Source: an uncultured delta proteobacterium (GTDB taxonomy: Bacteria; Myxococcota_A; Polyangia; Polyangiales; Polyangiaceae). Taken from it: a stretch of 32,000 nt of DNA. Position 1 is the first letter of the stretch; every line of letters begins with the position of its first letter. The DNA lies in NCBI GenBank assembly GCA_963781505.1, contig CAWAHB010000038.1, positions 17,388-49,387 of the forward strand, in the 5' to 3' direction. The notes beneath the pieces are model-generated. The model ran no database searches and was not told where the DNA came from. It saw nothing but the letters and a program-made list of their open reading frames with translations. A program made the position numbers and the translations under genes. Below are positions 9,133-21,265 of the stretch, one piece after another.

Positions 9133-9177
9133 ATCACAGTCACGATTCTCGCTCGTGCTCGTGCTCTGACCGCTGAT

Positions 9178-9333
9178 TTAGAAGATCCGCCACCAGAACG
9201 AGACGAAGAGCACCGCCAAAATCACGGCGATGAAGAGCCAAATCATCTCGTTCCTCGATGCGCCGAGCTTGCCCTTCGGTGGGATCCCACTCGGCGGCAC
9301 CAGGTCCAGATCGTGATCGACTTTGGCTGCCAT
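9178..9333 (-). CDS. small single-pass membrane protein (51 aa), unknown function
   Basis: Inner ATG of ORF 9178..9363(-), with AAAGGAG 6 nt upstream. The sequence is MAAKVDHDLDLVPPSGIPPKGKLGASRNEMIWLFIAVILAVLFVSFWWRIF, with a clear C-terminal TM helix. Confidence 0.55.
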   Translation of the reverse strand: MAAKVDHDLDLVPPSGIPPKGKLGASRNEMIWLFIAVILAVLFVSFWWRIF

Positions 9334-9474
9334 GGGAGCTCCTTTCGTGCTCGGGAGCTGCATGAGGCATGCCGCGGAGCGCCGTCATTTGCGGCGGTCG
9401 GACGGGGCGAAATGGCCGTGGCGCCGGCCGGGTGTTGCGGAACGCCTCGTCAGCCCCGATTGCGGCGCCCACGG

Positions 9475-10687
9475 TCACGGCGCCGCCGCGTCCGCGTCGA
9501 GCATGCCGTCGGTCGCGAGTCGAAGAAGCTGCCGTATCCGTGCGTGCGCTGCTGCCAGCGGAAGTGATCGAACAGCTGGAGCACGGTCGCGGTGCGCTGG
9601 CCGGCATCTCTTGAGGGATGCCGTCGGCCCTGATCGAGATAGCAGCGGATGAACAGGCTCTTCTCGTTGGACGGCAGGGCGTCGACGTTCGCGACGTACG
9701 CCTTCCACTTCGTCGGGCTCCATCACGTACTGCTCCACGTTGGAGACGTAGAACGCCGACACGGGCAGGTCGCGGCTTGCGAAGCTCCTTGCCGACGCCT
9801 GGAGCGCATGGTCGCCCGCGAAGTCACCGACCACCGGGATGACGCGATTTTGCGCGCTCGAGATCCCGCACCGACGCGAAACGCCGGTCGGCTCGCCAAA
9901 AATCCGAGCTGTTCGACCGCGCGGATTCTTGGCGCCGAGGAGCTCGCGAAGCTCGGGTAGTCCCGGAAGTTCTTTCCGTGCAGCTCGAAGCGAAGATCGA
10001 GCTGCTTGTCGAAGAAGGCGTGGTGGGTCTCCTCGAGCGTCTGCTCGGTCCTTGCTCGAAAGCGGGATCTGGAAGTCGCGCTCGATGCGCGAGACCAGAG
10101 CGCCGCGTGGATTTCGTCGATAGAGCTTCGGTGTCGGGCGCCGATTTCTTGACGAAGGCGAGCACTTCGTCGATGTCGGCGCGCGGTGCCCGGGCTCCGC
10201 TTCTGCGCGACGGGCGGCCAAGAGCAGCCGCGAGGAATCGCGCGCGGGTGTCGGCTTCCTCGAAGATCGATTTGTACAGCGAGCTGCTCGAGAGCGTTGC
10301 CTCGACGGATGTCGACGATGAACGCGAGCTTGGGCTCGAGCAGCGCGATGTAGGTGAAGTTCTGTTCGGGCCCGACTCCGATGTATGCGCCGCCCGGGCG
10401 GCGTGCCGCGCAAGCCGTCGGCCACCTGCAGGTAGCTGGTCTCGTTGGAGATGTAGTTGTCGCTGAAGAAGTAGCGATCGGGCTCGGATAGCTCGCGAAA
10501 CAGCCGGGCGAGCTCCGACGCGGGAAGCGACAAGGAAGGCGCGGACGGTCTCCGGGGTGTGCTCGCGCTCGGCGCCGGCGCGGCGCTCACTGGGGCACCG
10601 ACCGTCTCAGCGGGCGGAGGTGCGACCTTCTTGTCGCAGGCCACGAGCGAAAGGAGACCAGCCAGACGAATTTCTGCCCCAGCTCAT
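9475..10687 (-). pseudogene. conserved hypothetical lipoprotein gene broken by roughly 8-11 frame changes
   Basis: Protein-like segments alternate between all three minus-strand frames. In order they are: (M)SWG, RLAGLLSLVACDKK...ELSEPDRYFFSDNYISNETSYLQVADGL, GAYIGVGPEQNFTYIALLEPKLAFIVDIRR, LYKSIFEEADTRARFLAAALGRP...DIDEVLAFVKKSAPDTEAL, YRRNPRGALVSRIERDFQIPLS, ETHHAFFDKQLDLRFELHGKNF, NRVIPVVGDFAGDHAL...SAFYVSNVEQYVMEP, KWKAYVANVDALPSNEKSLFIRCYLDQG and LATDGMLDADAAAP-stop. The ORF track shows only 9475..10644(-) and 9824..10165(-). I cannot name the family with confidence. Confidence 0.6.
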
Positions 10688-10794: not shown

Positions 10795-11664
10795 ATGTCC
10801 GCCGCCCAGCCCCTTTCTCCCGCGCTGGTGGTGTCGGTGATGCTCCACGTGCTCGTCGCGACCGCGGCGCTCACCGTCGGAGCCCATCACCGGGGGCCGC
10901 TGGTGGATCCCGACCGGGGAGCCTCGTGGCAGGGCGACACCTTCGAGGTCGACGAGCTGCTCAAGACACCCGCAACGAGCGCTCCGGCTGCGGCCGAGCC
11001 AAAAGCCATCGGCAAGACCGAGTCCGAGCCGCAAGTCGCGGCTCCGGTCGAGCCCAAAGCAGAGCCAAAACCGAAACCCGATCCGGGACCCAAGCCGGAA
11101 GCCCAACGACAAGCCGATCCAAAGCCCGAACCGGCAGCTGGGCCCCCTTCGGCAAGTCGTCCGAGCGCCGGCGATGGACAAAGCGACAGTCCTCGGGGTG
11201 GCAGTCCCGGCGTCGCGCCGGGCGTCGCCAATCTCGCCAAGGCCTTCACTCGCGCGATCACGGCGGCCACTCACCGCGACGCGATTTGGGACGAGCTGCC
11301 CCTCGGCAAAGTTGGAAGCTTCGCCGTCGTGGTGACATTGGGTGACGACGGAAGCATCACCGAGAGCGAGCTCGAGCACCGCAAGGACGTTGCCGAGCAT
11401 CTGGTACGCATGGTGGACCGAACACTCTTGATGCTGAAGGCGGGTCGCTTTGCGCTCAGTCGCGAGGGTTCCGATAGCGGCTCAGAGAGCTTTCAGATCG
11501 ATGTCGTGCTCTCCGCGGGGACTCCCGACGAGTACGCGGAAAATCCCCACGACTCCTCCAACATGGGTTTCGATCCTCCGCTTCCCGACAAGCCCGGTCG
11601 TGCCTACTTCGACCACGCCTCGGGTCGGCACTTCGAGGCGAAGGTCACGCTTCTCCCGCGCTGA
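10795..11664 (+). CDS. TonB-like protein (N-terminal TM anchor, Pro/Lys/Glu-rich spacer, C-terminal globular domain)
   Basis: Inner ATG of ORF 10744..11664(+), preceded by GAGGTGA. The TM helix is LSPALVVSVMLHVLVATAALTV and the spacer is EPKAEPKPKPDPGPKPEAQRQADPKPEP. I did not recognise the C-terminal domain beyond the general TonB-like layout. Confidence 0.55.
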   Translation: MSAAQPLSPALVVSVMLHVLVATAALTVGAHHRGPLVDPDRGASWQGDTFEVDELLKTPATSAPAAAEPKAIGKTESEPQVAAPVEPKAEPKPKPDPGPKPEAQRQADPKPEPAAGPPSASRPSAGDGQSDSPRGGSPGVAPGVANLAKAFTRAITAATHRDAIWDELPLGKVGSFAVVVTLGDDGSITESELEHRKDVAEHLVRMVDRTLLMLKAGRFALSREGSDSGSESFQIDVVLSAGTPDEYAENPHDSSNMGFDPPLPDKPGRAYFDHASGRHFEAKVTLLPR

Positions 11665-13774
11665 GGAGCGACGCCTTGGCGCCCGCAGCGCGGCTGAGGA
11701 GCGGGCTCGGCTCGAACAAGGTGAGCCCGGAGGCTTCGTGCCAGCGCCGAAGCGTCGTCGCGACCGACTCGGCTCCCACACCGTCCGCCCACTTCAGCGG
11801 ACCGCCCCGATAGGGCGGAAAGCCCATGCCGAGCACCGCAGCGACGTCGACGTCGCTCGGGCGAAGGACGATGCCCTCCTCGATGGCGCGACAGGCTTCG
11901 TTCACCACTCCGAACAGCAGGAGTTGGGGGATCTCGTCGTCATCGATCTCGACCGCGGTCGGATTTCCGGCGAGCTCCCGTGCCTTCGAGACGAAGTTCG
12001 AGAGAGTGGGATCTTCCGATGCCTGCTTGCCATCGTACCGATAATGACCCGCGCCAGATTTTTCTCCCAGCCGACCCGCCTCCACTAGTAGGCGGCGGAG
12101 CTGGGAGCGATACCCGCGGCCCGGATACGCGGCGTCGAGGATGCCTCCCGCTTTCACGCCCACGTCGACTCCGGCGAGATCACTCATGCGACAAGGACCC
12201 ATCGGCATTCCAAAAGCATGTACGGCGCGATCGATTCGATAAGGATCGACGCCGCGGTCCATCAACCAACCGGTGATCTGCGAGTAGGGCATGAAGATGC
12301 GATTCACGAGAAAGCCGGTGCACGTCTGGACCGTGACCGGGGTCTTTCTCATGCGCTTTGCCAGGGCCAGCGTATCGGCGATCGCCTGGGGGGAAGTTTC
12401 TTTCGTGCGGACGATCTCGAGGAGCTTCATGACGTGCGCGGGGCTGAAAAAGTGAGTGCCGAGCACCCGCTCGGGGGCGCCAGCCGCTTGGGCGACGACG
12501 TGAATGTCGATGGTGCTGGTGTTGGTTGCGAGCCAGGCGTCGGGCCGCGTCACCCTCGCTAGATCGGAAAAGATCCGACACTTGAGCTCAACGTCTTCGG
12601 TGGCCGCTTCGATCACGAAGTCCACCTGATCGAACTTCGCGTAGTCCGTCTGGGTGCTGAATCGAGCCAAAAGCTCCTGAGCGCGGGCGGCCGTGAGTCG
12701 GCCCTTGTCGACATTTCGCTCGATGTTCTTTTTCACTCGAGCTTCCGCGGCCGAGGCCTGGTCGACGCTCGCTTCGGTCAGCCGCACCTCGATACCCGCA
12801 TCGATGAGTGCGGTCGCGATGCCGGAGCCCATCGTTCCGCCACCGATCACGGCCACTCGTTCGATCTCGTTGGGGGTCCTCTCGCTCGCGCCCGGGACCT
12901 TGGCGGCCGCGCGTTCGGCGAAGAACAAATGAATCATGCCCCGCGCGCTGTCCGTGAGGAGCAGTGCCTGAAAGAGCGCCCGCTCTTTTTCGATGCCAGC
13001 CTCGGCACCGTGCTCGAGTCCCCAACCGATCGCATCCAGGCAGTCGAAGGGATGGGTGACGTTCCGATGCTTCTTTTCGGCGGCGAGTCGAGCTTCGCCC
13101 AGGATCCGGAGCGCCTCGTCCAACGGTTCGAGGGCGTCGGTTCGCTCGAGAGTCTTTCGTCGAGGGCGCTTCGTGTCGGCGATCTCCAGCGCCACCTCGC
13201 GCGCTTTCGCCACCGCATCGGTGGCGATCTCGTCGAGGATCCCGAGGGACCGCGCTTCCGCCGCCTTCGCTTGACGGCTGGACATCATGAGCTCGGTGGC
13301 CGCACGGACGCCGGTGACTCGGGGCAGGCGCTGGGTGCCGCCCGCTCCGGGAATCAAGCCGAGCAAGAGCTCCGGAAGCCCCACCCGAGCGCGCTCGGAG
13401 CCGACCCGCGCGTGACAGCCCAGGGCGAGCTCGAGGCCGCCTCCGAGAGCAAAGCCGTCGATCGCTGCCACCGTGGGCTTGTCGGAGCTTTCCAGTCGCC
13501 CGATGACGTCCGGTAGGCGGGTCGCGTCTTCCCGCGGCACGCCGTCGCTGATGCGCTTGAGCCGATTCACGTCGGCGCCCGCAACGAAATTTCCTCCAGC
13601 ACCCGTCAGCACGACGGCGCGTACGCTCGCGTCGCTCGTTGCCTCGTCGAGCCGTTGTGCAAGTCCTCGGAGCACTGCCGCCGACAACGCGTTCACGGGA
13701 GGATTGTCGACCGTGATGATGGCGACGCCGTCCATCACGTCGTAGCGGACTCGGCTCTCGGGATCGTCTTGCAT
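11645..13774 (-). CDS. fatty-acid oxidation multifunctional enzyme, FadB/FadJ type (enoyl-CoA hydratase plus 3-hydroxyacyl-CoA dehydrogenase)
   Basis: 3' part of ORF 11645..15130(-), starting at ATG 13774 (MQDDPESRVRYDVMDGVAIITVDNPPVNAL). The crotonase fold is supported by GAGGNFVAGADV and GFALGGGLELALGCH. A Rossmann motif VAVIGGGTMGSGIA and the 3HCDH C-terminal domains follow. It is 709 aa and intact. It overlaps the TonB-like gene end convergently by 20 nt. Confidence 0.9.
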   Translation of the reverse strand: MQDDPESRVRYDVMDGVAIITVDNPPVNALSAAVLRGLAQRLDEATSDASVRAVVLTGAGGNFVAGADVNRLKRISDGVPREDATRLPDVIGRLESSDKPTVAAIDGFALGGGLELALGCHARVGSERARVGLPELLLGLIPGAGGTQRLPRVTGVRAATELMMSSRQAKAAEARSLGILDEIATDAVAKAREVALEIADTKRPRRKTLERTDALEPLDEALRILGEARLAAEKKHRNVTHPFDCLDAIGWGLEHGAEAGIEKERALFQALLLTDSARGMIHLFFAERAAAKVPGASERTPNEIERVAVIGGGTMGSGIATALIDAGIEVRLTEASVDQASAAEARVKKNIERNVDKGRLTAARAQELLARFSTQTDYAKFDQVDFVIEAATEDVELKCRIFSDLARVTRPDAWLATNTSTIDIHVVAQAAGAPERVLGTHFFSPAHVMKLLEIVRTKETSPQAIADTLALAKRMRKTPVTVQTCTGFLVNRIFMPYSQITGWLMDRGVDPYRIDRAVHAFGMPMGPCRMSDLAGVDVGVKAGGILDAAYPGRGYRSQLRRLLVEAGRLGEKSGAGHYRYDGKQASEDPTLSNFVSKARELAGNPTAVEIDDDEIPQLLLFGVVNEACRAIEEGIVLRPSDVDVAAVLGMGFPPYRGGPLKWADGVGAESVATTLRRWHEASGLTLFEPSPLLSRAAGAKASLLSAGEA

Positions 13775-13828
13775 GACGCCCGGGACTTTCGCACACAGAT
13801 GGAAGCGCGTGCTACCCTCCGCCCGCGG

Positions 13829-15118
13829 ATGCTGCGCATCTTCTTCGCGCTCGCGCTCGTGATGGGCATGTCCGGCTGTCGCGATGGCGCATCCAAGTCG
13901 GAAGCCCCGGCCGTTCCGGAGGATGCCTCCTTGCCCCGGGTCACGCTCGTGGCGAAGAACGAAGCCGGCGTTCCGCTGCACTCGACGCCGGGTCAGACCG
14001 CCGTCTCGGCGCGCCTCCCCGATGGGACCGAGGTCCTCGTGATCGAGAAGAGCTCCGACAAACACTGGCTGCACGTTCGAAAGCCGGGCGGAGCCAGTGG
14101 TTGGTGCACCGAGCGCTACGTCGCCGGGTCCTCGAGGCCGGTCGCGCCGGCGGCGCGCCTCCCCGATGCCTCCCCATGGGCCTCGCGAGCAGCCTGTGAA
14201 GCCGCGCTCTCGAAAAAGAAGCCTCGCCCGGCCGGCAGCGTCCGGCTCGCGACCTGGAACATCCGCTGGTTTCCCGATGGCAAGCCCGGCAAAGGTCGCT
14301 CGAACGAGGACGGGACGGACATCGACTGGCTCGCTTGCGCGATCGCCTGGCTCGACGTGGACGCCATCGCGCTGCAGGAAATCAAGACCAACGAGCACGC
14401 GGGGCAGCGCTCCCGCGCCCTCCTCACCTCGCTCTCTCGCGCGAGCGGCGGCAAATGGCGACTCGAAACCGATGAGTGCGAAAACCGGGACGGCCAGCAC
14501 GTCGCCCTCCTGATCGACGAAAAGAAGCTCGTCGAAAAATCCGTCGGCCAGCTCGCATCTCTGAATCCGAATGGGCAGGCTTGCAAAAATCAGCTGCGAC
14601 CCGGTCTGGGCGCGTATCTGACCTCGAAGGGAGGGCTCGACTTCCACTTCGTGTCCGTCCACGCCAAGAGCGGCAGTGAGCGGCGATCCTTCGACCTGAG
14701 ACAGCGCAGCTTGCGAGGCATCGCTGCGGCGCGAAGCGAGCTTCTCGCGCGAGTGGCCGACTCCGACGTGGTGATCGCGGGTGACTTCAACACCATGGGT
14801 TGCTCGAAGTGCTCGGTGCCGGTGAGCTCGGCCGAAGAAATCTCCGGCATGGATCGGGCGCTGTCCGATCTGCCGACCCCATTTCGTCGAGTCCCCACCG
14901 ACGGTGCCTGCACCGAACGAAGCTCCCACGGTGAGGCACTCCTCGACCATTTCGTGGTGAGTCGGTCGATGGCGGAGCTCGAACCCAGCGTCCGCGCGGT
15001 GGTGGCCGGCATCTGTCGCGAGGCAGCTTGCGGCGCGCCGCGAGAGCTCCCTGCCGAAGCCCGGCTGAGCGATCATTGCCCGGTGGTGCTCGAGATCCCG
15101 GACCGCGATCTCGATTGA
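13829..15118 (+). CDS. lipoprotein with SH3b-like domain and endonuclease/exonuclease/phosphatase (EEP) domain
   Basis: Inner start of ORF 13655..15118(+). MLRIFFALALVMGMSGC carries a lipobox; an alternative ATG lies at 13799. The SH3b-like part is TLVAKNEAGVPLHSTPG...WLHVRKPGGASGWCTERYV. EEP hallmarks are LATWNIRWF, AIALQEI, HFVSVHAKSG, VIAGDFN and LSDHCPVV. Confidence 0.8.
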   Translation: MLRIFFALALVMGMSGCRDGASKSEAPAVPEDASLPRVTLVAKNEAGVPLHSTPGQTAVSARLPDGTEVLVIEKSSDKHWLHVRKPGGASGWCTERYVAGSSRPVAPAARLPDASPWASRAACEAALSKKKPRPAGSVRLATWNIRWFPDGKPGKGRSNEDGTDIDWLACAIAWLDVDAIALQEIKTNEHAGQRSRALLTSLSRASGGKWRLETDECENRDGQHVALLIDEKKLVEKSVGQLASLNPNGQACKNQLRPGLGAYLTSKGGLDFHFVSVHAKSGSERRSFDLRQRSLRGIAAARSELLARVADSDVVIAGDFNTMGCSKCSVPVSSAEEISGMDRALSDLPTPFRRVPTDGACTERSSHGEALLDHFVVSRSMAELEPSVRAVVAGICREAACGAPRELPAEARLSDHCPVVLEIPDRDLD

Positions 15119-15160
15119 CATTCTCGGCACTTGCCCGGGTTTTGGGCTATCCTGATCGGG

Positions 15161-16479: not shown

Positions 16480-16917
16480 ATGACTACAATCCCCGCCGTG
16501 CCCAAGAACCATCATCTCGTCAAGAGCGAGCCGAGCATCTACTGCTTCGCCGATCTCGTGCGCGACAAGAAGACGGCGTGGGATGGAGTGCGCAACGCAG
16601 CAGCGCGCAACAATCTCCGCGCGATGAAGAAAGACGATCTGGTCCTCTACTATCACACGGGTGACGAACGGCAGGTGGTCGGCATCGCGCGCGTCGTCAA
16701 AACCGCGTATCCCGATCCCACGGCGGACGACGGGGATTGGTCGGCGGTGGATCTCGCGCCGGTCGAGGCATTGCCCCGCTCCGTGACCCTGGCCCAGATC
16801 AAATCGGATCCGAAGCTCCGAGCTCTTCCTTTGATTCGCATGGGACGACTGAGCGTGATGCCAGTCTCCGCTGCGGAATTTCGACACATCGCGCAGTTGG
16901 GCGGCAAAAAGAAGTGA
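16480..16917 (+). CDS. EVE domain (PUA-like) protein
   Basis: ORF 16480..16917(+). HHLVKSEPSIYCFADLVRDKKTAWDGVRNAAARNNLRAMKKDDLVLYYHTG...GIARVVKTAYPDPT...LSVMPVSAAEF matches the EVE/thymocyte-nuclear-protein-1-like pattern. The stop TGA overlaps the next ATG as TGATG at 16915-16919. Confidence 0.85.
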   Translation: MTTIPAVPKNHHLVKSEPSIYCFADLVRDKKTAWDGVRNAAARNNLRAMKKDDLVLYYHTGDERQVVGIARVVKTAYPDPTADDGDWSAVDLAPVEALPRSVTLAQIKSDPKLRALPLIRMGRLSVMPVSAAEFRHIAQLGGKKK

Positions 16918-18587
16918 TGCGCTCCATCGCCGCAGTCGCCCTGGTCCTCTTCACACTCTTGTCGGCAGGCCGCGCCCTGGGCGAGCCCCCCGAGGACTGC
17001 AAGAGTCCCCGCGCCGCCGTGAATTCCGTGTTCGGCTGGCAAGAGCCGGAGCACTTCAACCCCGCCAAAGCGATGCACTGCCTCGATCGCGCGGGCCGAA
17101 GCGCGAGCGAGCTTCGACAAAGCGCCCAGCGCATCAAGGCCGTTTACGAGGCACGCGCGCTCAAGCTCGATGAATCCCGCTTCAGTACCGAGTCCGGTTG
17201 GGTGAATCCCGAGACCGGCAAGCGTGCGTTCGCAGTGCACCGCAGCATTCCGGGCGTTCAAATCGAGAGACAGGCGGACGGCGAGTGGCGGTGGTCCCGA
17301 GCTTCCCTCGATCGCGTGGACGAGTTGTTCGAAGACTCGCTCGGCGAGCGCAGTGGCTGGATCATCGAGAAGTTGCCGGGCTGGGCTCACTTGCGCGCGT
17401 TCGGCGTGGAGCTCTGGCAGGCGGTCGCTCTGCTGCTGATCCTGCTCGTAGCGTGGGTGGTTCGCGGCGTGATCCGTGCGCTGGTCAAGGTGCGCCTTTC
17501 GAAGTTCGCCGAACGACGCGGCGCCCACCTGACCGCGCAGATCGCTCAGGTGTTTGCGACTCCGGGTGCTTCACTTCTGCTCGCGTTGATGCTGCGCTTG
17601 GTGTACCCGAGCTTGGGCCTTCCCCTGGCTGCGGCGCTACTCGTCAGCGCCGCCGTGAGTGCGCTCGTCGTGTTCGCGTTGGTGGTGGCCATTTACCGCC
17701 TGGTCGACGTGTTCGCGACACACCTCGGCGAGCGTGCTGCTCTGACCGAGTCGAAGCTCGACGACCAATTCGTGCCGCTCTTCCGTAAGGCCACGAAAGT
17801 GCTGATCGTGATCGCGGGCGTGCTGGTGATGCTCCAGAACCTGAACGTGAACGTGATGTCACTGGTCGCCGGGCTCGGCATCGGCGGCTTGGCCGTGGCA
17901 CTCGCGGCCAAGGACAGCATCGCGAACCTCTTCGGCAGCATCATGATCTTCACCGACCGCCCGTTCACCATCGGTGATTGGGTCAAAGTGGAGGAAGTCG
18001 AAGGCAAAATCGAGGCGGTGGGCTTCCGATCGACACGCATTCGCACCCTCGCCGACACGATCGTGACGATGCCCAACGCCCGCTTCATGGAAGCGAAAAT
18101 CGAGAATTTCAGCGAGCGAGAGGCCCGGCGAGTGACCACGGTCCTCGGGCTGACCTACGACACTCCGCGAGACCGCCTACAAGCCTTCGTCGAAGGCATT
18201 CGCGCCATCATCCGCGCCAACCCCCTCACCCGGAAGGACAAGTACGAAGTGCACTTCTCCGGCTTCGGCGCGAGCGCGTTGGAGATTTACGTTCACTTCT
18301 ACGTCCGAGTCCCCACCTGGTCGGAAGAGCTGCGCGAACGCCACAACGTGTTCTCCGAAGTGTTGCGCTTGGCACAAGCACTCGGAGTGTCCTTCGCGTT
18401 TCCCACGCAGACGCTCCACGTCGAATCGTTGGCCGCACCCGGAGCTTCGCCCCCCGAGCGTTCCGCAAAGGCTCACTCCGATCTCGCCGAGGTGGTGCGC
18501 AGTTTCGGGCCCGACGGGAGTGTTGCGCGTCCAGAAGCAGAGCTGATCACCGAGGGCTTCCCGCCAACGCAGGAACCGTTGGCCTGA
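16917..18587 (+). CDS. mechanosensitive ion channel family protein (MscS-like) with N-terminal periplasmic domain
   Basis: Inner ATG of ORF 16737..18587(+). The signal is MRSIAAVALVLFTLLSAGRALG, followed by several TM helices. The MscS core is GLGIGGLAVALAAKDSIANLFGSIMIFTDRPFTIGDWVKVEEVEGKIEAVGFRSTRIRTLADTIVTMPN. The gene is intact. Confidence 0.9.
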   Translation: MRSIAAVALVLFTLLSAGRALGEPPEDCKSPRAAVNSVFGWQEPEHFNPAKAMHCLDRAGRSASELRQSAQRIKAVYEARALKLDESRFSTESGWVNPETGKRAFAVHRSIPGVQIERQADGEWRWSRASLDRVDELFEDSLGERSGWIIEKLPGWAHLRAFGVELWQAVALLLILLVAWVVRGVIRALVKVRLSKFAERRGAHLTAQIAQVFATPGASLLLALMLRLVYPSLGLPLAAALLVSAAVSALVVFALVVAIYRLVDVFATHLGERAALTESKLDDQFVPLFRKATKVLIVIAGVLVMLQNLNVNVMSLVAGLGIGGLAVALAAKDSIANLFGSIMIFTDRPFTIGDWVKVEEVEGKIEAVGFRSTRIRTLADTIVTMPNARFMEAKIENFSEREARRVTTVLGLTYDTPRDRLQAFVEGIRAIIRANPLTRKDKYEVHFSGFGASALEIYVHFYVRVPTWSEELRERHNVFSEVLRLAQALGVSFAFPTQTLHVESLAAPGASPPERSAKAHSDLAEVVRSFGPDGSVARPEAELITEGFPPTQEPLA

Positions 18588-18590
18588 CGA

Positions 18591-18806
18591 TCACTCGTCC
18601 TTGTCGCTCTTCTTCTTCGCGGGATCTCGAGCTTCGTGGATCTCCATCAGCGTGCCGAGCGCCTCGATCTCGCGCTTGGTTTGAATTTCGCGTTGCCGGA
18701 GCGTTTTGATTTCGGCTTCGAGCTTGCGCTGCTCCGCTTCGAGCTCGCGCAGCCCATCCTTCAATCGATCACGTTCGGCACGGAGCACGTCGACTTCGAG
18801 AGGCAC
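18591..18806 (-). CDS. small coiled-coil protein (71 aa), unknown function
   Basis: ORF 18591..18806(-), GTG start. VPLEVDVLRAERDRLKDGLRELEAEQRKLEAEIKTLRQREIQTKREIEALGTLMEIHEARDPAKKKSDKDE shows heptad-like charged repeats and high third-position GC. No obvious RBS. It is convergent with the MscS gene across a 3-nt gap. Confidence 0.5.
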   Translation of the reverse strand: MPLEVDVLRAERDRLKDGLRELEAEQRKLEAEIKTLRQREIQTKREIEALGTLMEIHEARDPAKKKSDKDE

Positions 18807-18948
18807 GGGCTCTAACTACCAGAGGATCGCCGAGGGCTAGAGCGCAAAACGTGAGAGGGGGCGCTTCCCCTCCATTTCGACCCTGGCCGAGTCCCGTGAC
18901 TGAAACGTGACGCCACGGCCGCGGGTCTGACGGACGCGTGTCGGCGCG

Positions 18949-18967
18949 TGTGGGAAATTGTGGCAGG
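18949..18967 (+). repeat. pair of TGTGG-core 9-mers 10 nt apart (weak DnaA-box-like)
   Basis: TGTGGGAAA (18949-18957) has 2 mismatches to TGTGGATAA. TGTGGCAGG (18959-18967) has 4 mismatches. Both share the orientation of the 19156-19187 triplet. Confidence 0.3.
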
Positions 18968-19040
18968 GCGGCAATCAATGCAAGTTCTTGCCATTCAACT
19001 CAATTGGCAATCACGTATTCAATCAAACAAACTAATCAAA

Positions 19041-19049
19041 TGATATAAA
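19041..19049 (+). promoter_or_regulatory. candidate extended -10 promoter element (TGaTATAAA) in the AT-rich tract
   Basis: TG at 19041-19042 and TATAAA at 19044-19049 fit the extended -10 pattern TGnTATAAT in 8 of 9 positions. There is no convincing -35. This rests on pattern match only. Confidence 0.25.
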
Positions 19050-19155
19050 AGGTGAGTCGCTGAATGGGGCTCAGGGTGGCGTCTGCATAAAAACTCAATA
19101 AAAACAATAGTTTCAAGAGATGCGCGAGCTCCGCATCTACGCGTCCGGGAAAGCT

Positions 19156-19187
19156 TGTGGATTAGTTGTGGGGCAACTTGTGGATAA
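19156..19187 (+). repeat. three phased TTGTGG-core repeats, including one perfect DnaA-box 9-mer
   Basis: The three 9-mers are TGTGGATTA (19156-19164, 1 mismatch), TGTGGGGCA (19167-19175, 3 mismatches) and TGTGGATAA (19179-19187). The third is an exact reverse complement of the TTATCCACA consensus. Start-to-start spacing is 11 and 12 nt, all in one orientation. The 12-mers CTTGTGGATTAG and CTTGTGGATAAG differ at one base. Confidence 0.45.
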
Positions 19188-19188
19188 G

Positions 19189-19213
19189 AAAATCGCATCT
19201 GGCAGCGATTTTT
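19189..19213 (+). terminator. weak hairpin plus T-run (possible small terminator or bidirectional hairpin)
   Basis: AAAATCGC (19189-19196) pairs with GCGATTTT (19205-19212) around an 8-nt loop, followed by T at 19213. The stem is AT-rich and symmetric, so strand and function are uncertain. Confidence 0.3.
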
Positions 19214-19259
19214 AGTTGCATAGAAGCTCGACCTCGACCATATATCGACCTCGGAAGTT

Positions 19260-21196
19260 CGCGGCACATCTGCCAGCGAGCGACCGATTCGTTGAGATTT
19301 TCAGGAGCGCCGTGCGCGCTGCTCGGTCTGTGGGTCGCAAGCCCACGGCAGGGTGGCCGTCACCGCCGGTCGAGTCGGGTGACCCGTCAAGGTCGCCAGG
19401 GTTGGCCGAGTGAAAAAGGCGCGAGGGTCGTTTTCCCATCTCCCGCCTCTTTCAAGAATGCGGGGGGCCAAATGGGAACGCCCCGGTCTGGCGGAAGTTA
19501 GCGCCTCCGCCCGGGCTTCCTGGAATTTCGAAGGCACCCTGGCTTTCACGAACACCTCACCCATTCGCGTGGGCGGTGGAACTGAAGGTCTCGGCTGGCC
19601 GGCTCGACGCCTGGATCCCTTCAGGTCCAGCCCGGGAGCAGGTTAGCGACAACGGGTGCACGGAGAATGGCCGAGTTGGCCTCTTGCGCCGCAGCGCGCA
19701 TGTGCTGACTCACTGTTCTTCGGCCGGCACGGCAGGCACCTTCGGGGTGCCAGTCGGGGTTTCTCGAGAGAGAGGTCTCGGCGTCGTGCCGCTCGCAGCC
19801 CGCACGGCTTCGGTCAGCGGGCGGCGGAGCGAGTGAAAGCTCAATCCGTGCGAGGAGTCATCGCTTGTTGGTGTGCTCGGGCTCGCGTTGAAAAGGTTGC
19901 AGAATTCGGTGAGCAGCGTCTGGCTCAAGAAGCGAACCTCGGTTGCGGCTGAGGTGAGCAGACGGGGTCTAGCTCTGCGCGACTAATACCCGCGCCAGGG
20001 CGAAAGGAATGCTGAGAGCTACACCACTTCGGGAAGTCTCCGGAGTGGGAACGTAGCGAAGGGCCTGAGAAGGGTCCCTCATCGGAGGAAGGCGCTTCGG
20101 GTCGCTTACAGCCGTCGGAAGTCACGCTCTATGGCGGTGCGGCGATCTCGATCGTTCGAGTCGAGTTGGCAGAGATGCTGGCAGAGCTTGGGCGGTGACA
20201 GAAGCGTCAGAGGCAAAGGCGCCAAGCGGCGAATCGAGGCAGAAAACGCTCGACTCGACGTGAAGGTGGTCAGCCGAAGCGAGCGATTGCGGCGTGAACC
20301 GCATCGTTCATCGACCCACACGGGGGAAACCCCGCAAGCGGGAATCGGTAGCCGCGCGAAGCACCGGGTGCTCATCTTTGAAATGTAGGATTGCAAACGT
20401 CGGCCGGACGTATCTCTGGCCATGGCTGCTCGTCACCGAAAGGTACGAATCCAGACCGTGGTCTAGCTCGACCAGAACCGAGGCATCGTTGACGCGATGT
20501 CGTGGAAGATCAGTAGAGCGAATGGGTACGCGAAGCTCTTTATCTCGCGTGAACAACCGGGTGAAGAGCATCGACTTGCGAAGAAACCCTTCGTGAGCTC
20601 AAGGTACGACAAAGGCGTTCTGGGTCGTGAGCAGTGTCGTTCTTAATCCGTTCGGCACCAGCGCGGTCCCTGATCGCATGGGTCAATGCGGTTTCGACCG
20701 GTCATACGCGCAAGCGGGTGGTCAGTCGGGATTCGAGCAGCCGGTGATGGGAGCCTGAGGTCTCATCGACGGTGTCCGTGCGACGACAGAGAACGTCAGA
20801 GGCTGGGTAATCGTTTGGTGAAGGCTCCTCCAGTTGAAGAAACGCGGGGGGTCAGCATCCGTGGTGTTGTCGGAAGGCAGCCACGCCGAGGTCCCTGTGG
20901 GCGCGAGCCGGCAGAAAACCAATGGACGGTGCATCAACGAAACTCTACGCCGAAGCTAGTAAGGGCTAACGACCCTACTACTGCGCCAGGCCAAGTCAGC
21001 GCGAAACTGTGCGGGCCTGGAATTGCGGAGCCTACATTGAGGCGATGATGCCATGACGACCGCTTGCAAGCGGCGTGGTGGCGGCTGGTGATAGCAAAAG
21101 CTGAAACATGCTCGGGGAGTGTTCCTCCCACCACCAGCAATCAAAATCGTGACTTCCCAAGGCCGATCCGGGTGACCGGGTCGGCCTTGTTTTTTT
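19260..21196 (+). ncRNA. candidate large structured non-coding RNA region (unclassified); the 5' boundary is not defined
   Basis: No ORF longer than ~120 codons exists in any frame. GC is about 53-63% by hand counts. The region contains many GC-rich hairpins, including a CGGGG-GAAA-CCCCG hairpin, plus a nested three-helix domain at 20153-20260. It ends at a canonical plus-strand intrinsic terminator. No match to any RNA family I can recognise by eye. Confidence 0.3.
21159..21196 (+). terminator. Rho-independent terminator, plus strand
   Basis: A 13-bp stem pairs AAGGCCGATCCGG (21159-21171) with CCGGGTCGGCCTT (21176-21188), with one T-G wobble. The loop is a GTGA tetraloop. It is followed by G and then seven T (21190-21196). 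On the minus strand no T-run follows the hairpin, so it is plus-oriented. Confidence 0.8.
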
Positions 21197-21265
21197 GTCT
21201 CGCGAAGCGAAGGACCTGCCACATGCTCAGACGGCAAAGGCCAGACCGAGGCGGCTGATCCGCCC

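Follow-up and report, generated by a model that had tools for sequence, protein, structure and literature searches.

Large structured noncoding RNAs (ncRNAs) of Bacteria include OLE, an RNA of ~600 nucleotides (nt) from Bacillota, as well as GOLLD (~800 nt) and ROOL (~580 nt), which are typically associated with phages or with tRNA genes. Apart from rRNA, these RNAs of ~600 to 800 nt are, to our knowledge, the largest structured ncRNAs known from bacteria. OLE functions as a ribonucleoprotein and, in addition, assembles into homo-oligomers (PMC12054373, PMC12286853). GOLLD and ROOL are large ornate ncRNAs that were found by comparative genomics, contain many conserved loops engaged in kissing contacts and form RNA-only cages (PMC12286853). 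All three RNAs have turned into long-running puzzles and have recently been a source of unexpected RNA architectures (PMC12286853). Here, we analyzed a stretch of 32,000 nt from an uncultured delta proteobacterium of the Polyangiaceae (assembly GCA_963781505.1, contig CAWAHB010000038.1, positions 17,388 to 49,387 of the forward strand), which we refer to as the window and in which position 1 is the first letter. A gap without genes at 18807-21265 had been proposed, from the letters alone, to be a large structured RNA locus (the original prediction). This proposal is supported by full-length homologs, by covariation and by the absence of matches to protein families. We consider it very likely (probability of roughly 0.85) that 19250-21196 on the plus strand constitutes a stand-alone gene for a single, highly structured ncRNA of ~1,947 nt, whose family is absent from Rfam 15 and is apparently undescribed.

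Like OLE, the RNA described here is stand-alone, highly conserved and intricately structured, and in both cases the sequence of the RNA itself is better conserved than its surroundings. Unlike OLE, it is about three times longer, belongs to Myxococcota and shows no match in sequence or structure; partner genes of the oapA/oapB/oapC type are missing nearby, and EVE, MscS, coiled-coil and FadL genes are found instead. With GOLLD and ROOL the RNA shares conserved loop-loop complementarity, which is only a hint of homo-oligomeric assembly. It differs from these two RNAs in its length of ~1,950 nt, in its chromosomal and syntenic location, in the absence of an Rfam match and in the lack of phage genes or tRNAs in its vicinity.

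The gap lacks the hallmarks of coding DNA. No open reading frame (ORF) of at least 150 amino acids (aa) is located between 18710 and 21266, and the longest start-to-stop ORF within 18807-21265 comprises 120 aa. The longest stop-free run in the six frames of this segment is 140 codons, the lowest value among 119 sliding windows of 2,459 nt (median, 491), and stop trinucleotides are about twice as frequent as elsewhere in the window (53.7 versus 28.3 per kilobase [kb]). Thus, the segment is ORF-free as had been claimed, and its stated gene boundaries (18806 and 21266) match those of the called genes. The GC content by codon position is flat from ~18850 to 21260, while both flanking genes show a GC content at the third codon position (GC3) that far exceeds that at the second (GC2). 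Overall GC contents amount to 28.3% at 18991-19050 (predicted, ~28%), 43% over 18975-19150, 61.3% in the RNA body and 65% in the flanks, for which the earlier estimate of 67 to 70% was slightly high. Within the RNA gene, G exceeds C and A exceeds T.

The pattern of substitutions likewise carries no trace of codons. For the variable columns of 11 full-length sequences, the autocorrelation decays smoothly without peaks at lags 3 and 6, while the MscS gene of the same organisms, used as a control, displays clear peaks at both lags. No small ORF with both its start and its length kept across the homologs was detected, and the stop-free frames vary from organism to organism. A Pfam search of the ten longest internal ORFs returned no match at an E value of ≤0.1 (the single reported match had an E value of 0.27), and when one translated stop-free frame was searched against a protein database, the only matches were 21 ORF calls from this same element, all of them unnamed and devoid of domains. 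These results demonstrate that the sequence of 19250-21196 is noncoding. One minus-strand frame over the 3′ domain and the terminator (columns 1783-2160 of alignment A4, described below; ~20854-21200 in the window) is open for ~115 to 125 codons in 9 of 11 homologs and is broken in the window. Unnamed "hypothetical proteins" (P0134-P0154) have been called from other minus-strand frames of the RNA element; these are annotation artefacts over the RNA gene.

Homologs of the RNA are preserved over their full length in related organisms. An invariant 22-mer, GGAAGTTCGCGGCACATCYGCC, was used in one metagenome scan and led to 11 further loci; the profile search was performed afterwards. With nhmmer, full-length homologs were identified in Myxococcota metagenome bins and contigs of 10 other organisms, mostly in syntenic position (loci L005, L006, L007, L009, L011, L012, L014, L016, L018 and L019), and partial matches were obtained on seven contigs (L004, L010, L015, L017, L020, L024 and L025). 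Every locus contains one copy of the element. Four of the homologs (L005, L006, L007 and L009) align with the window end to end, and in L004, the closest relative with available DNA (MscS, 67% identical), the first 300 nt of the gap are ~95% identical to the window. Conservation starts ~100 nt upstream of 19250 and stops abruptly at the T-tract of the terminator; the predicted locus is indeed conserved over the full ~1.95 kb. At least 90% conservation was found for 752 of 1,956 columns, including single-stranded junctions and invariant hairpins, and the interdomain junctions rank among the best-conserved parts. All five domains occur in every full-length homolog, and in an unchanged order. The divergent homologs lack some of the peripheral hairpins or have expanded versions of them, which is reminiscent of expansion segments. 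Relatives of the MscS protein with 55 to 75% identity are found in metagenome bins named Myxococcales or Polyangiaceae, and the guess of a myxobacterial source was right. Among the organisms that carry the RNA, the MscS proteins are 55 to 71% identical. At more distant MscS loci (Polyangiaceae, Vulgatibacter and Labilithrix bins), synteny is lost and no RNA copy was found nearby, and a search of species-representative genomes with the MscS protein returned only matches in Bacteroidota, which are irrelevant here. The phylogenetic range of the RNA appears to be narrow.

Numerous metagenome and Logan contigs terminate within the RNA or at its edges, among them all seven contigs with partial matches. 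Five Logan contigs of <2 kb bear the same spurious ORF of the element, and two of these five, from SRR28338165 and SRR28338167, are located wholly inside it. Such contig ends reflect either assembly breaks in sequence that is common to co-occurring strains, as is the case with rRNA, or contigs that are derived from transcripts.

Further evidence for an RNA comes from covariation. Alignment A4 comprises 13 sequences from related uncultured organisms, and RNAalifold predicted 625 base pairs on it, 335 of which show compensatory double changes. Helices with more than 17% nonstandard cells were dropped, which left 538 pairs in 70 helices. In this set, 93.3% of 6,501 cells are paired, a percentage that is inflated because a single alignment served both to predict the structure and to count its pairs, compared to 39 to 43% with partners slid by 1 to 3 columns and 84.8% after shuffling. 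Changes on both sides were found for 258 of the 538 pairs (59 to 80 when slid, ~120 when shuffled), and none of 500 shuffles reached 258; the covariation score was 0.335, compared to ~0.08 for slid and 0.193 for shuffled partners. The covarying base pairs that a structured RNA locus should possess are thus abundant. G·U cells outnumber A·C cells by ~9:1 (1,045 versus 112), which shows that the RNA is read from the plus strand; the orientation of the terminator agrees with this. Folding of single sequences yielded a z score of -4.8 for domain 1, with many of the consensus helices reproduced, and of -2.4 for domains 3 to 5. The alignment demonstrates that the evolution of the ~1.95-kb element preserves ~540 predicted base pairs in ~70 helices, read from the plus strand. 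Assigned only to the generic class of structured noncoding RNAs, the element displays both compensatory pairs and an absence of coding signal. That it is transcribed as a discrete unit is indicated indirectly, by the conserved promoter-like elements, the covarying terminator and the contigs confined to the element.

The predicted parts of the RNA, all on the plus strand, are as follows.

~19250-21196, plus strand: RNA gene of ~1,947 nt with 61% GC, defined by full-length homologs and covariation; the 5′ end is predicted within a few nt, and the 3′ end is the U-tract of the terminator.
19264-19271, plus strand: 5′ segment, predicted to pair with 20388-20394; the 5′ end is also predicted to pair with 21042-45 (helices 1 and 2).
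19272-19872, plus strand: domain 1, ~600 nt, with an 18-base-pair (bp) closing helix (19272-19292/19853-19872; helix 3) that has 7 compensatory pairs.
19619-19624, plus strand: domain 1 loop CUUCAG, which may form a kissing contact with the domain 4 loop.
19873-20371, plus strand: domain 2, ~500 nt, closed by 19873-19879/20365-20371; helices 24 to 40, most of them with several compensatory pairs.
20372-20397, plus strand: highly conserved junction that holds 20388-20394 and helices 2 and 41; its pairs are invariant.
20398-20610, plus strand: domain 3, helices 42 to 49; the closing helix has 5 compensatory pairs.
20614-20797, plus strand: domain 4, helices 50 to 56; the closing helix is 100% paired and has 4 compensatory pairs.
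20755-20760, plus strand: domain 4 loop CUGAGG, which may form a kissing contact with the domain 1 loop.
20799-21033, plus strand: domain 5, helices 57 to 65, including the invariant AAGGCUCCUCCA/GGGGGGUCAG hairpin at 20821-20855.
21051-21081 and 21084-21138, plus strand: two 3′ hairpin elements, helices 66 to 69, with the invariant AUGCUCGGGGC...CGCCCACCA.
21158-21196, plus strand: intrinsic terminator with a 14-bp stem (21158-21189), a GUGA loop and U7.

Compensatory changes are found in the closing helix of each of the five domains, and GNRA or UNCG tetraloops account for about 7 of the 35 hairpin loops. The plus-strand terminator noted in the original prediction proved to be real: its 14-bp stem (helix 70) is followed by T7, is 100% paired in all homologs and contains 6 compensatory pairs. 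No internal terminators were found in the RNA gene, and a search for internal domain duplications revealed, apart from the DnaA-box repeat described below, nothing but short repeats at chance level. A pseudoknot search among unpaired columns pointed to one candidate 6-bp kissing interaction between the loops of domains 1 and 4. This candidate is kept in all full-length sequences, the two most divergent of which carry changes on both sides; it is 93.5% paired, compared to 17 to 61% in the slid controls, and contains 2 compensatory pairs, while 22 of 500 shuffles were as good. We place moderate confidence in this putative loop-loop contact, which may form within one molecule or between molecules. 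Two repeat arrays were observed directly after the RNA terminator in other loci, namely, tandem (CGTACT)n arrays in L006 (~9170-9500) and tandem repeats of CGCGTTCCC in L005 (~14330-14400); neither is present in the window.

Upstream of the RNA, a series of conserved elements was found.

18975-19150, no strand: AT-rich island between the divergent coiled-coil gene and the RNA promoter, with AATCAA/TCAA-type repeats that L005 and L006 retain in part.
19156-19187, minus strand: three phased TGTGG-type repeats, TGTGGATTA, TGTGGGGCA and TGTGGATAA, ~65 to 95 nt upstream of the predicted RNA start.
19189-19212, no strand: palindrome composed of AAAATCGC (19189-96), N8 and GCGATTTT (19205-12), of which AAAATC...GATTTT is kept in all homologs with upstream DNA.
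19216-19244, plus strand: promoter-like element with TTGCAT (19216-21), 17 nt and CATATA (19239-44), conserved at a fixed spacing.

The AT-rich island probably represents shared regulatory or UP-like DNA; other homologs contain short AT-rich inverted repeats (e.g., TGTAATTACA) at about -150. The repeat TGTGGATAA (19179-19187) matches the DnaA-box consensus perfectly (TTATCCACA on the minus strand) and is the only perfect match in the 32 kb. It is accompanied by one or two imperfect copies with a phasing of 11 to 12 bp. In every close homolog with upstream DNA, the upstream elements are found at fixed distances, with TGTGGATAA at -74 from a conserved GGAAGUUCGCGG block (~-70 from the predicted start). 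The DnaA-like box of the most divergent homolog reads TGTGGACAA, and TGTGGATTA at -97 is present in most homologs. The palindrome abuts the -35-like element and could serve as the operator of a dimeric regulator. In the promoter-like element, TTGC and CAT(A/T)(A/T)A are kept at a fixed spacing across homologs, and strong conservation sets in from ~8 nt further downstream. Contig L015 starts 5 nt before GGAAGUUCGCGG, at the position expected for the start site. The arrangement of boxes and palindrome suggests that DnaA or another regulator may control the RNA.

Based on these features, we propose the following model. Transcription would start from the conserved TTGC-N17-CATWAA element at ~19216-19244 and would be controlled by regulatory proteins that bind to the DnaA-box-like repeat and the palindromic operator directly upstream. 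The transcript would end at the intrinsic terminator and would adopt a compact, rRNA-like tertiary fold that is rich in GNRA and UNCG loops and includes the candidate kissing contact between domains 1 and 4. Because no co-oriented gene follows and no gene is overlapped, the RNA would act in trans as a folded molecule and neither as a leader nor as an antisense RNA. A riboswitch, leader or other cis-regulatory RNA was considered and rejected, since the gene that comes after the terminator is convergent at this locus and at the homologous ones.

Several points weigh against the proposal of a single ncRNA gene. The promoter-like element fails a strict sigma-70 consensus scan, so that we infer the promoter from its conservation. 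The alignment comprises only 13 sequences, all from related organisms, and the paired percentage is inflated for the reason given above. The 5′ helices that lead to 20388-20394 and 21042-45 are invariant and lack covariation support, and the support for the kissing loop is moderate only. Moreover, all carriers found are uncultured, and the expression of the RNA, its 5′ end and its possible processing into smaller pieces are deduced from the DNA. Finally, no sequence feature points to a specific function.

Because the 5′ helices are invariant and the support for the kissing loop is moderate, the notion of one molecule with one fold depends chiefly on the presence of a single promoter and a single terminator and on the helices that close the domains. 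The best of the competing explanations is that the locus represents a cluster of several RNAs or cis-regulatory structures that are independent of each other, or a precursor that is cut into stable pieces, rather than one molecule of 1.95 kb. The separate closing helix of each domain would fit such a cluster, as would the several metagenome and Logan contigs that end inside the element, and the helices that connect the 5′ end to the 3′ part are invariant and hence unproven. However, the five domains are framed by a single conserved promoter-like region and a single terminator, without internal terminators, and the order of the domains is the same in all full-length homologs. In addition, the interdomain junctions belong to the most highly conserved segments, and the candidate contact between domains 1 and 4 spans 1.1 kb. 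We regard a cluster or a cut precursor as improbable compared to a single RNA.

A second explanation holds that the locus is a site that functions as DNA, i.e., a replication origin, a DnaA-titrating cluster of boxes or a set of iterons, and that its RNA-like features are incidental. The original prediction had named an origin or iteron region as an alternative, and part of this idea stood: a DnaA-box-like repeat is indeed located in the upstream control region, where a perfect DnaA box and one or two imperfect ones, phased at 11 to 12 bp, are conserved beside an island of 28 to 43% GC; typical origins have more boxes, and the spacing of these is promoter-proximal. However, the boxes cover only ~35 bp and are located upstream of a 1.95-kb body that shows base-pair covariation with strand-specific G·U pairs. 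A consistent switch in GC skew was not observed (in L007 and L009, +0.028 on the left versus +0.004 to +0.012 on the right); the skew is similar on both flanks in L007, L009 and L014 and differs weakly in the window. Furthermore, no dnaA or dnaN gene is located within 10 kb, and the gene orientation is not divergent here. DNA sites do not yield covariation with strand-specific G·U pairs. We reject an origin as the explanation of the 2-kb element and consider any DNA-level reading of it very improbable.

Just as improbable is a very divergent member of a known family of large RNAs (an rRNA fragment, a group II intron, RNase P, OLE, GOLLD or ROOL), even though the size, the multidomain architecture, the purine richness and the tetraloop types resemble those of such RNAs. 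The 4,227 covariance models of Rfam 15, which include small-subunit (SSU) and large-subunit (LSU) rRNA, RNase P, tmRNA, SRP, 6S, group I and II introns, OLE, GOLLD, ROOL, raiA and HEARO, gave no match at the gathering score in the whole 32-kb window. When all of these models were run with cmscan at an E value of ≤10, the region yielded only L31-leader (22.8 bits versus 33.3) and Prion_pknot (17.9 versus 39), neither of which is meaningful, and five homolog loci yielded no meaningful match at an E value of ≤5; this is in line with the original prediction, in which the segment could not be matched to rRNA, tRNA, tmRNA, RNase P, SRP RNA or a group II intron. ARAGORN detected no tRNA or tmRNA in the window, and blastn searches against plasmids, phages and Escherichia coli genomes returned no match; none was found in viral contigs either. 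The RNA also possesses its own promoter-like element and terminator, without exons or an intron-encoded protein, and partner genes of ornate RNAs are absent nearby.

With 16S and 23S rRNA, the RNA shares the size class, several helix-closed domains, an excess of G over C and of A over T, a GC content below the genome average, and GNRA and UNCG tetraloops; as with rRNA, metagenome assemblies break in it. Unlike rRNA, it has no SSU or LSU match, it is a single isolated gene without tRNA or 5S partners, and it is much less conserved, with 62 to 71% identity between organisms whose MscS genes are 60 to 64% identical (nucleotide level). The multidomain architecture, conserved junctions and tetraloops are reminiscent of group II introns and RNase P RNA, yet the RNA lacks a match to domain V or to the RNase P core and has no flanking exons. 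In contrast to group II introns, it is also devoid of an intron-encoded protein or reverse transcriptase ORF and has a promoter-like element and terminator of its own.

A decayed protein gene, an insertion sequence (IS) or the remnant of a foreign element, the last of which had been offered as an alternative reading, is hardly conceivable and was rejected, for although the GC content is below that of the flanks and many short R/S/G-rich ORFs are present, no decayed gene or IS was recovered in the Pfam and database searches (no Pfam match at an E value of ≤0.1; a translated frame matched only unnamed ORF calls on the same element), the substitutions lack codon periodicity, the element is syntenic and full-length across organisms with flanking proteins of 55 to 71% identity, and no integrase, transposase or repeats flank it in the window.

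The genes around the gap follow an order that recurs in relatives, namely, a FadJ-like gene, an Exo_endo_phos gene, a gene of unknown type, an EVE-domain gene, the MscS gene and a small coiled-coil gene, followed by a gene-free gap of 2.3 to 2.9 kb; along their entire length, these gaps are homologous to the window. The MscS-type channel that flanks the gap in the window is identical to database protein P0001 (556 aa). Its true start is located at 16917, abutting the stop of the upstream EVE-domain gene, and the mechanically called ORF (16737-18587, 616 aa) is too long; similarly, a mechanically called ORF of 1,161 aa (11645-15130) corresponds to a FadJ-like enzyme of 700 aa in relatives. The gap is bordered by a 71-aa coiled-coil gene (18591-18806, minus strand). 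Across homologs, the coiled-coil protein has 63 to 73 aa, is K/R/E-rich, lacks a confident Pfam family and directly follows MscS, and in most loci its gene is divergent from the RNA gene. In some loci, GGDEF/EAL genes are located between the coiled-coil gene and the RNA element. On the other side of the gap, a 178-aa ORF and a Ser/Thr kinase gene follow, both on the minus strand. Like that of the homologs, the downstream neighbor in the window is convergent; in most loci, this gene encodes an outer-membrane protein of the FadL/TodX type. The conserved neighbors (EVE, MscS, coiled-coil and FadL-like) may just represent gene order that was inherited within one clade, and we did not take them as functional evidence.

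As to what the RNA might do, comparison with known systems would favor, at somewhat less than even odds, a role as the core of a ribonucleoprotein particle. That it is a ribozyme seems unlikely, and a self-assembling, RNA-only homo-oligomeric complex like OLE, ROOL or GOLLD would be less likely still; some other role accounts for the remainder. No description of such an RNA in myxobacteria was found in the open-access literature. Because of this and because no Rfam 15 model matched, we rate it as a new class. We tentatively put forward, as a possibility that is less likely than not, that the RNA is the founding member of a new, rRNA-sized class of bacterial RNAs, more than twice as large as any known nonribosomal structured bacterial ncRNA, which would be catalytic or would form the core of a large ribonucleoprotein or RNA-only assembly in Myxococcota and for which DnaA may link expression to the replication cycle.

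With its ~70 conserved helices, the RNA would be the largest structured bacterial RNA outside the ribosome. An RNA of 1.95 kb with ~70 covariation-supported helices would match 16S rRNA in its class of size and complexity. Among well-understood bacterial RNAs, such complexity is mainly known from ribozymes and the ribosome; thus, the RNA is a strong candidate for a new RNA-based machine. The locus also means that rRNA-sized RNA genes can still hide unannotated in metagenome-assembled genomes, where they appear as "empty" intergenic gaps.

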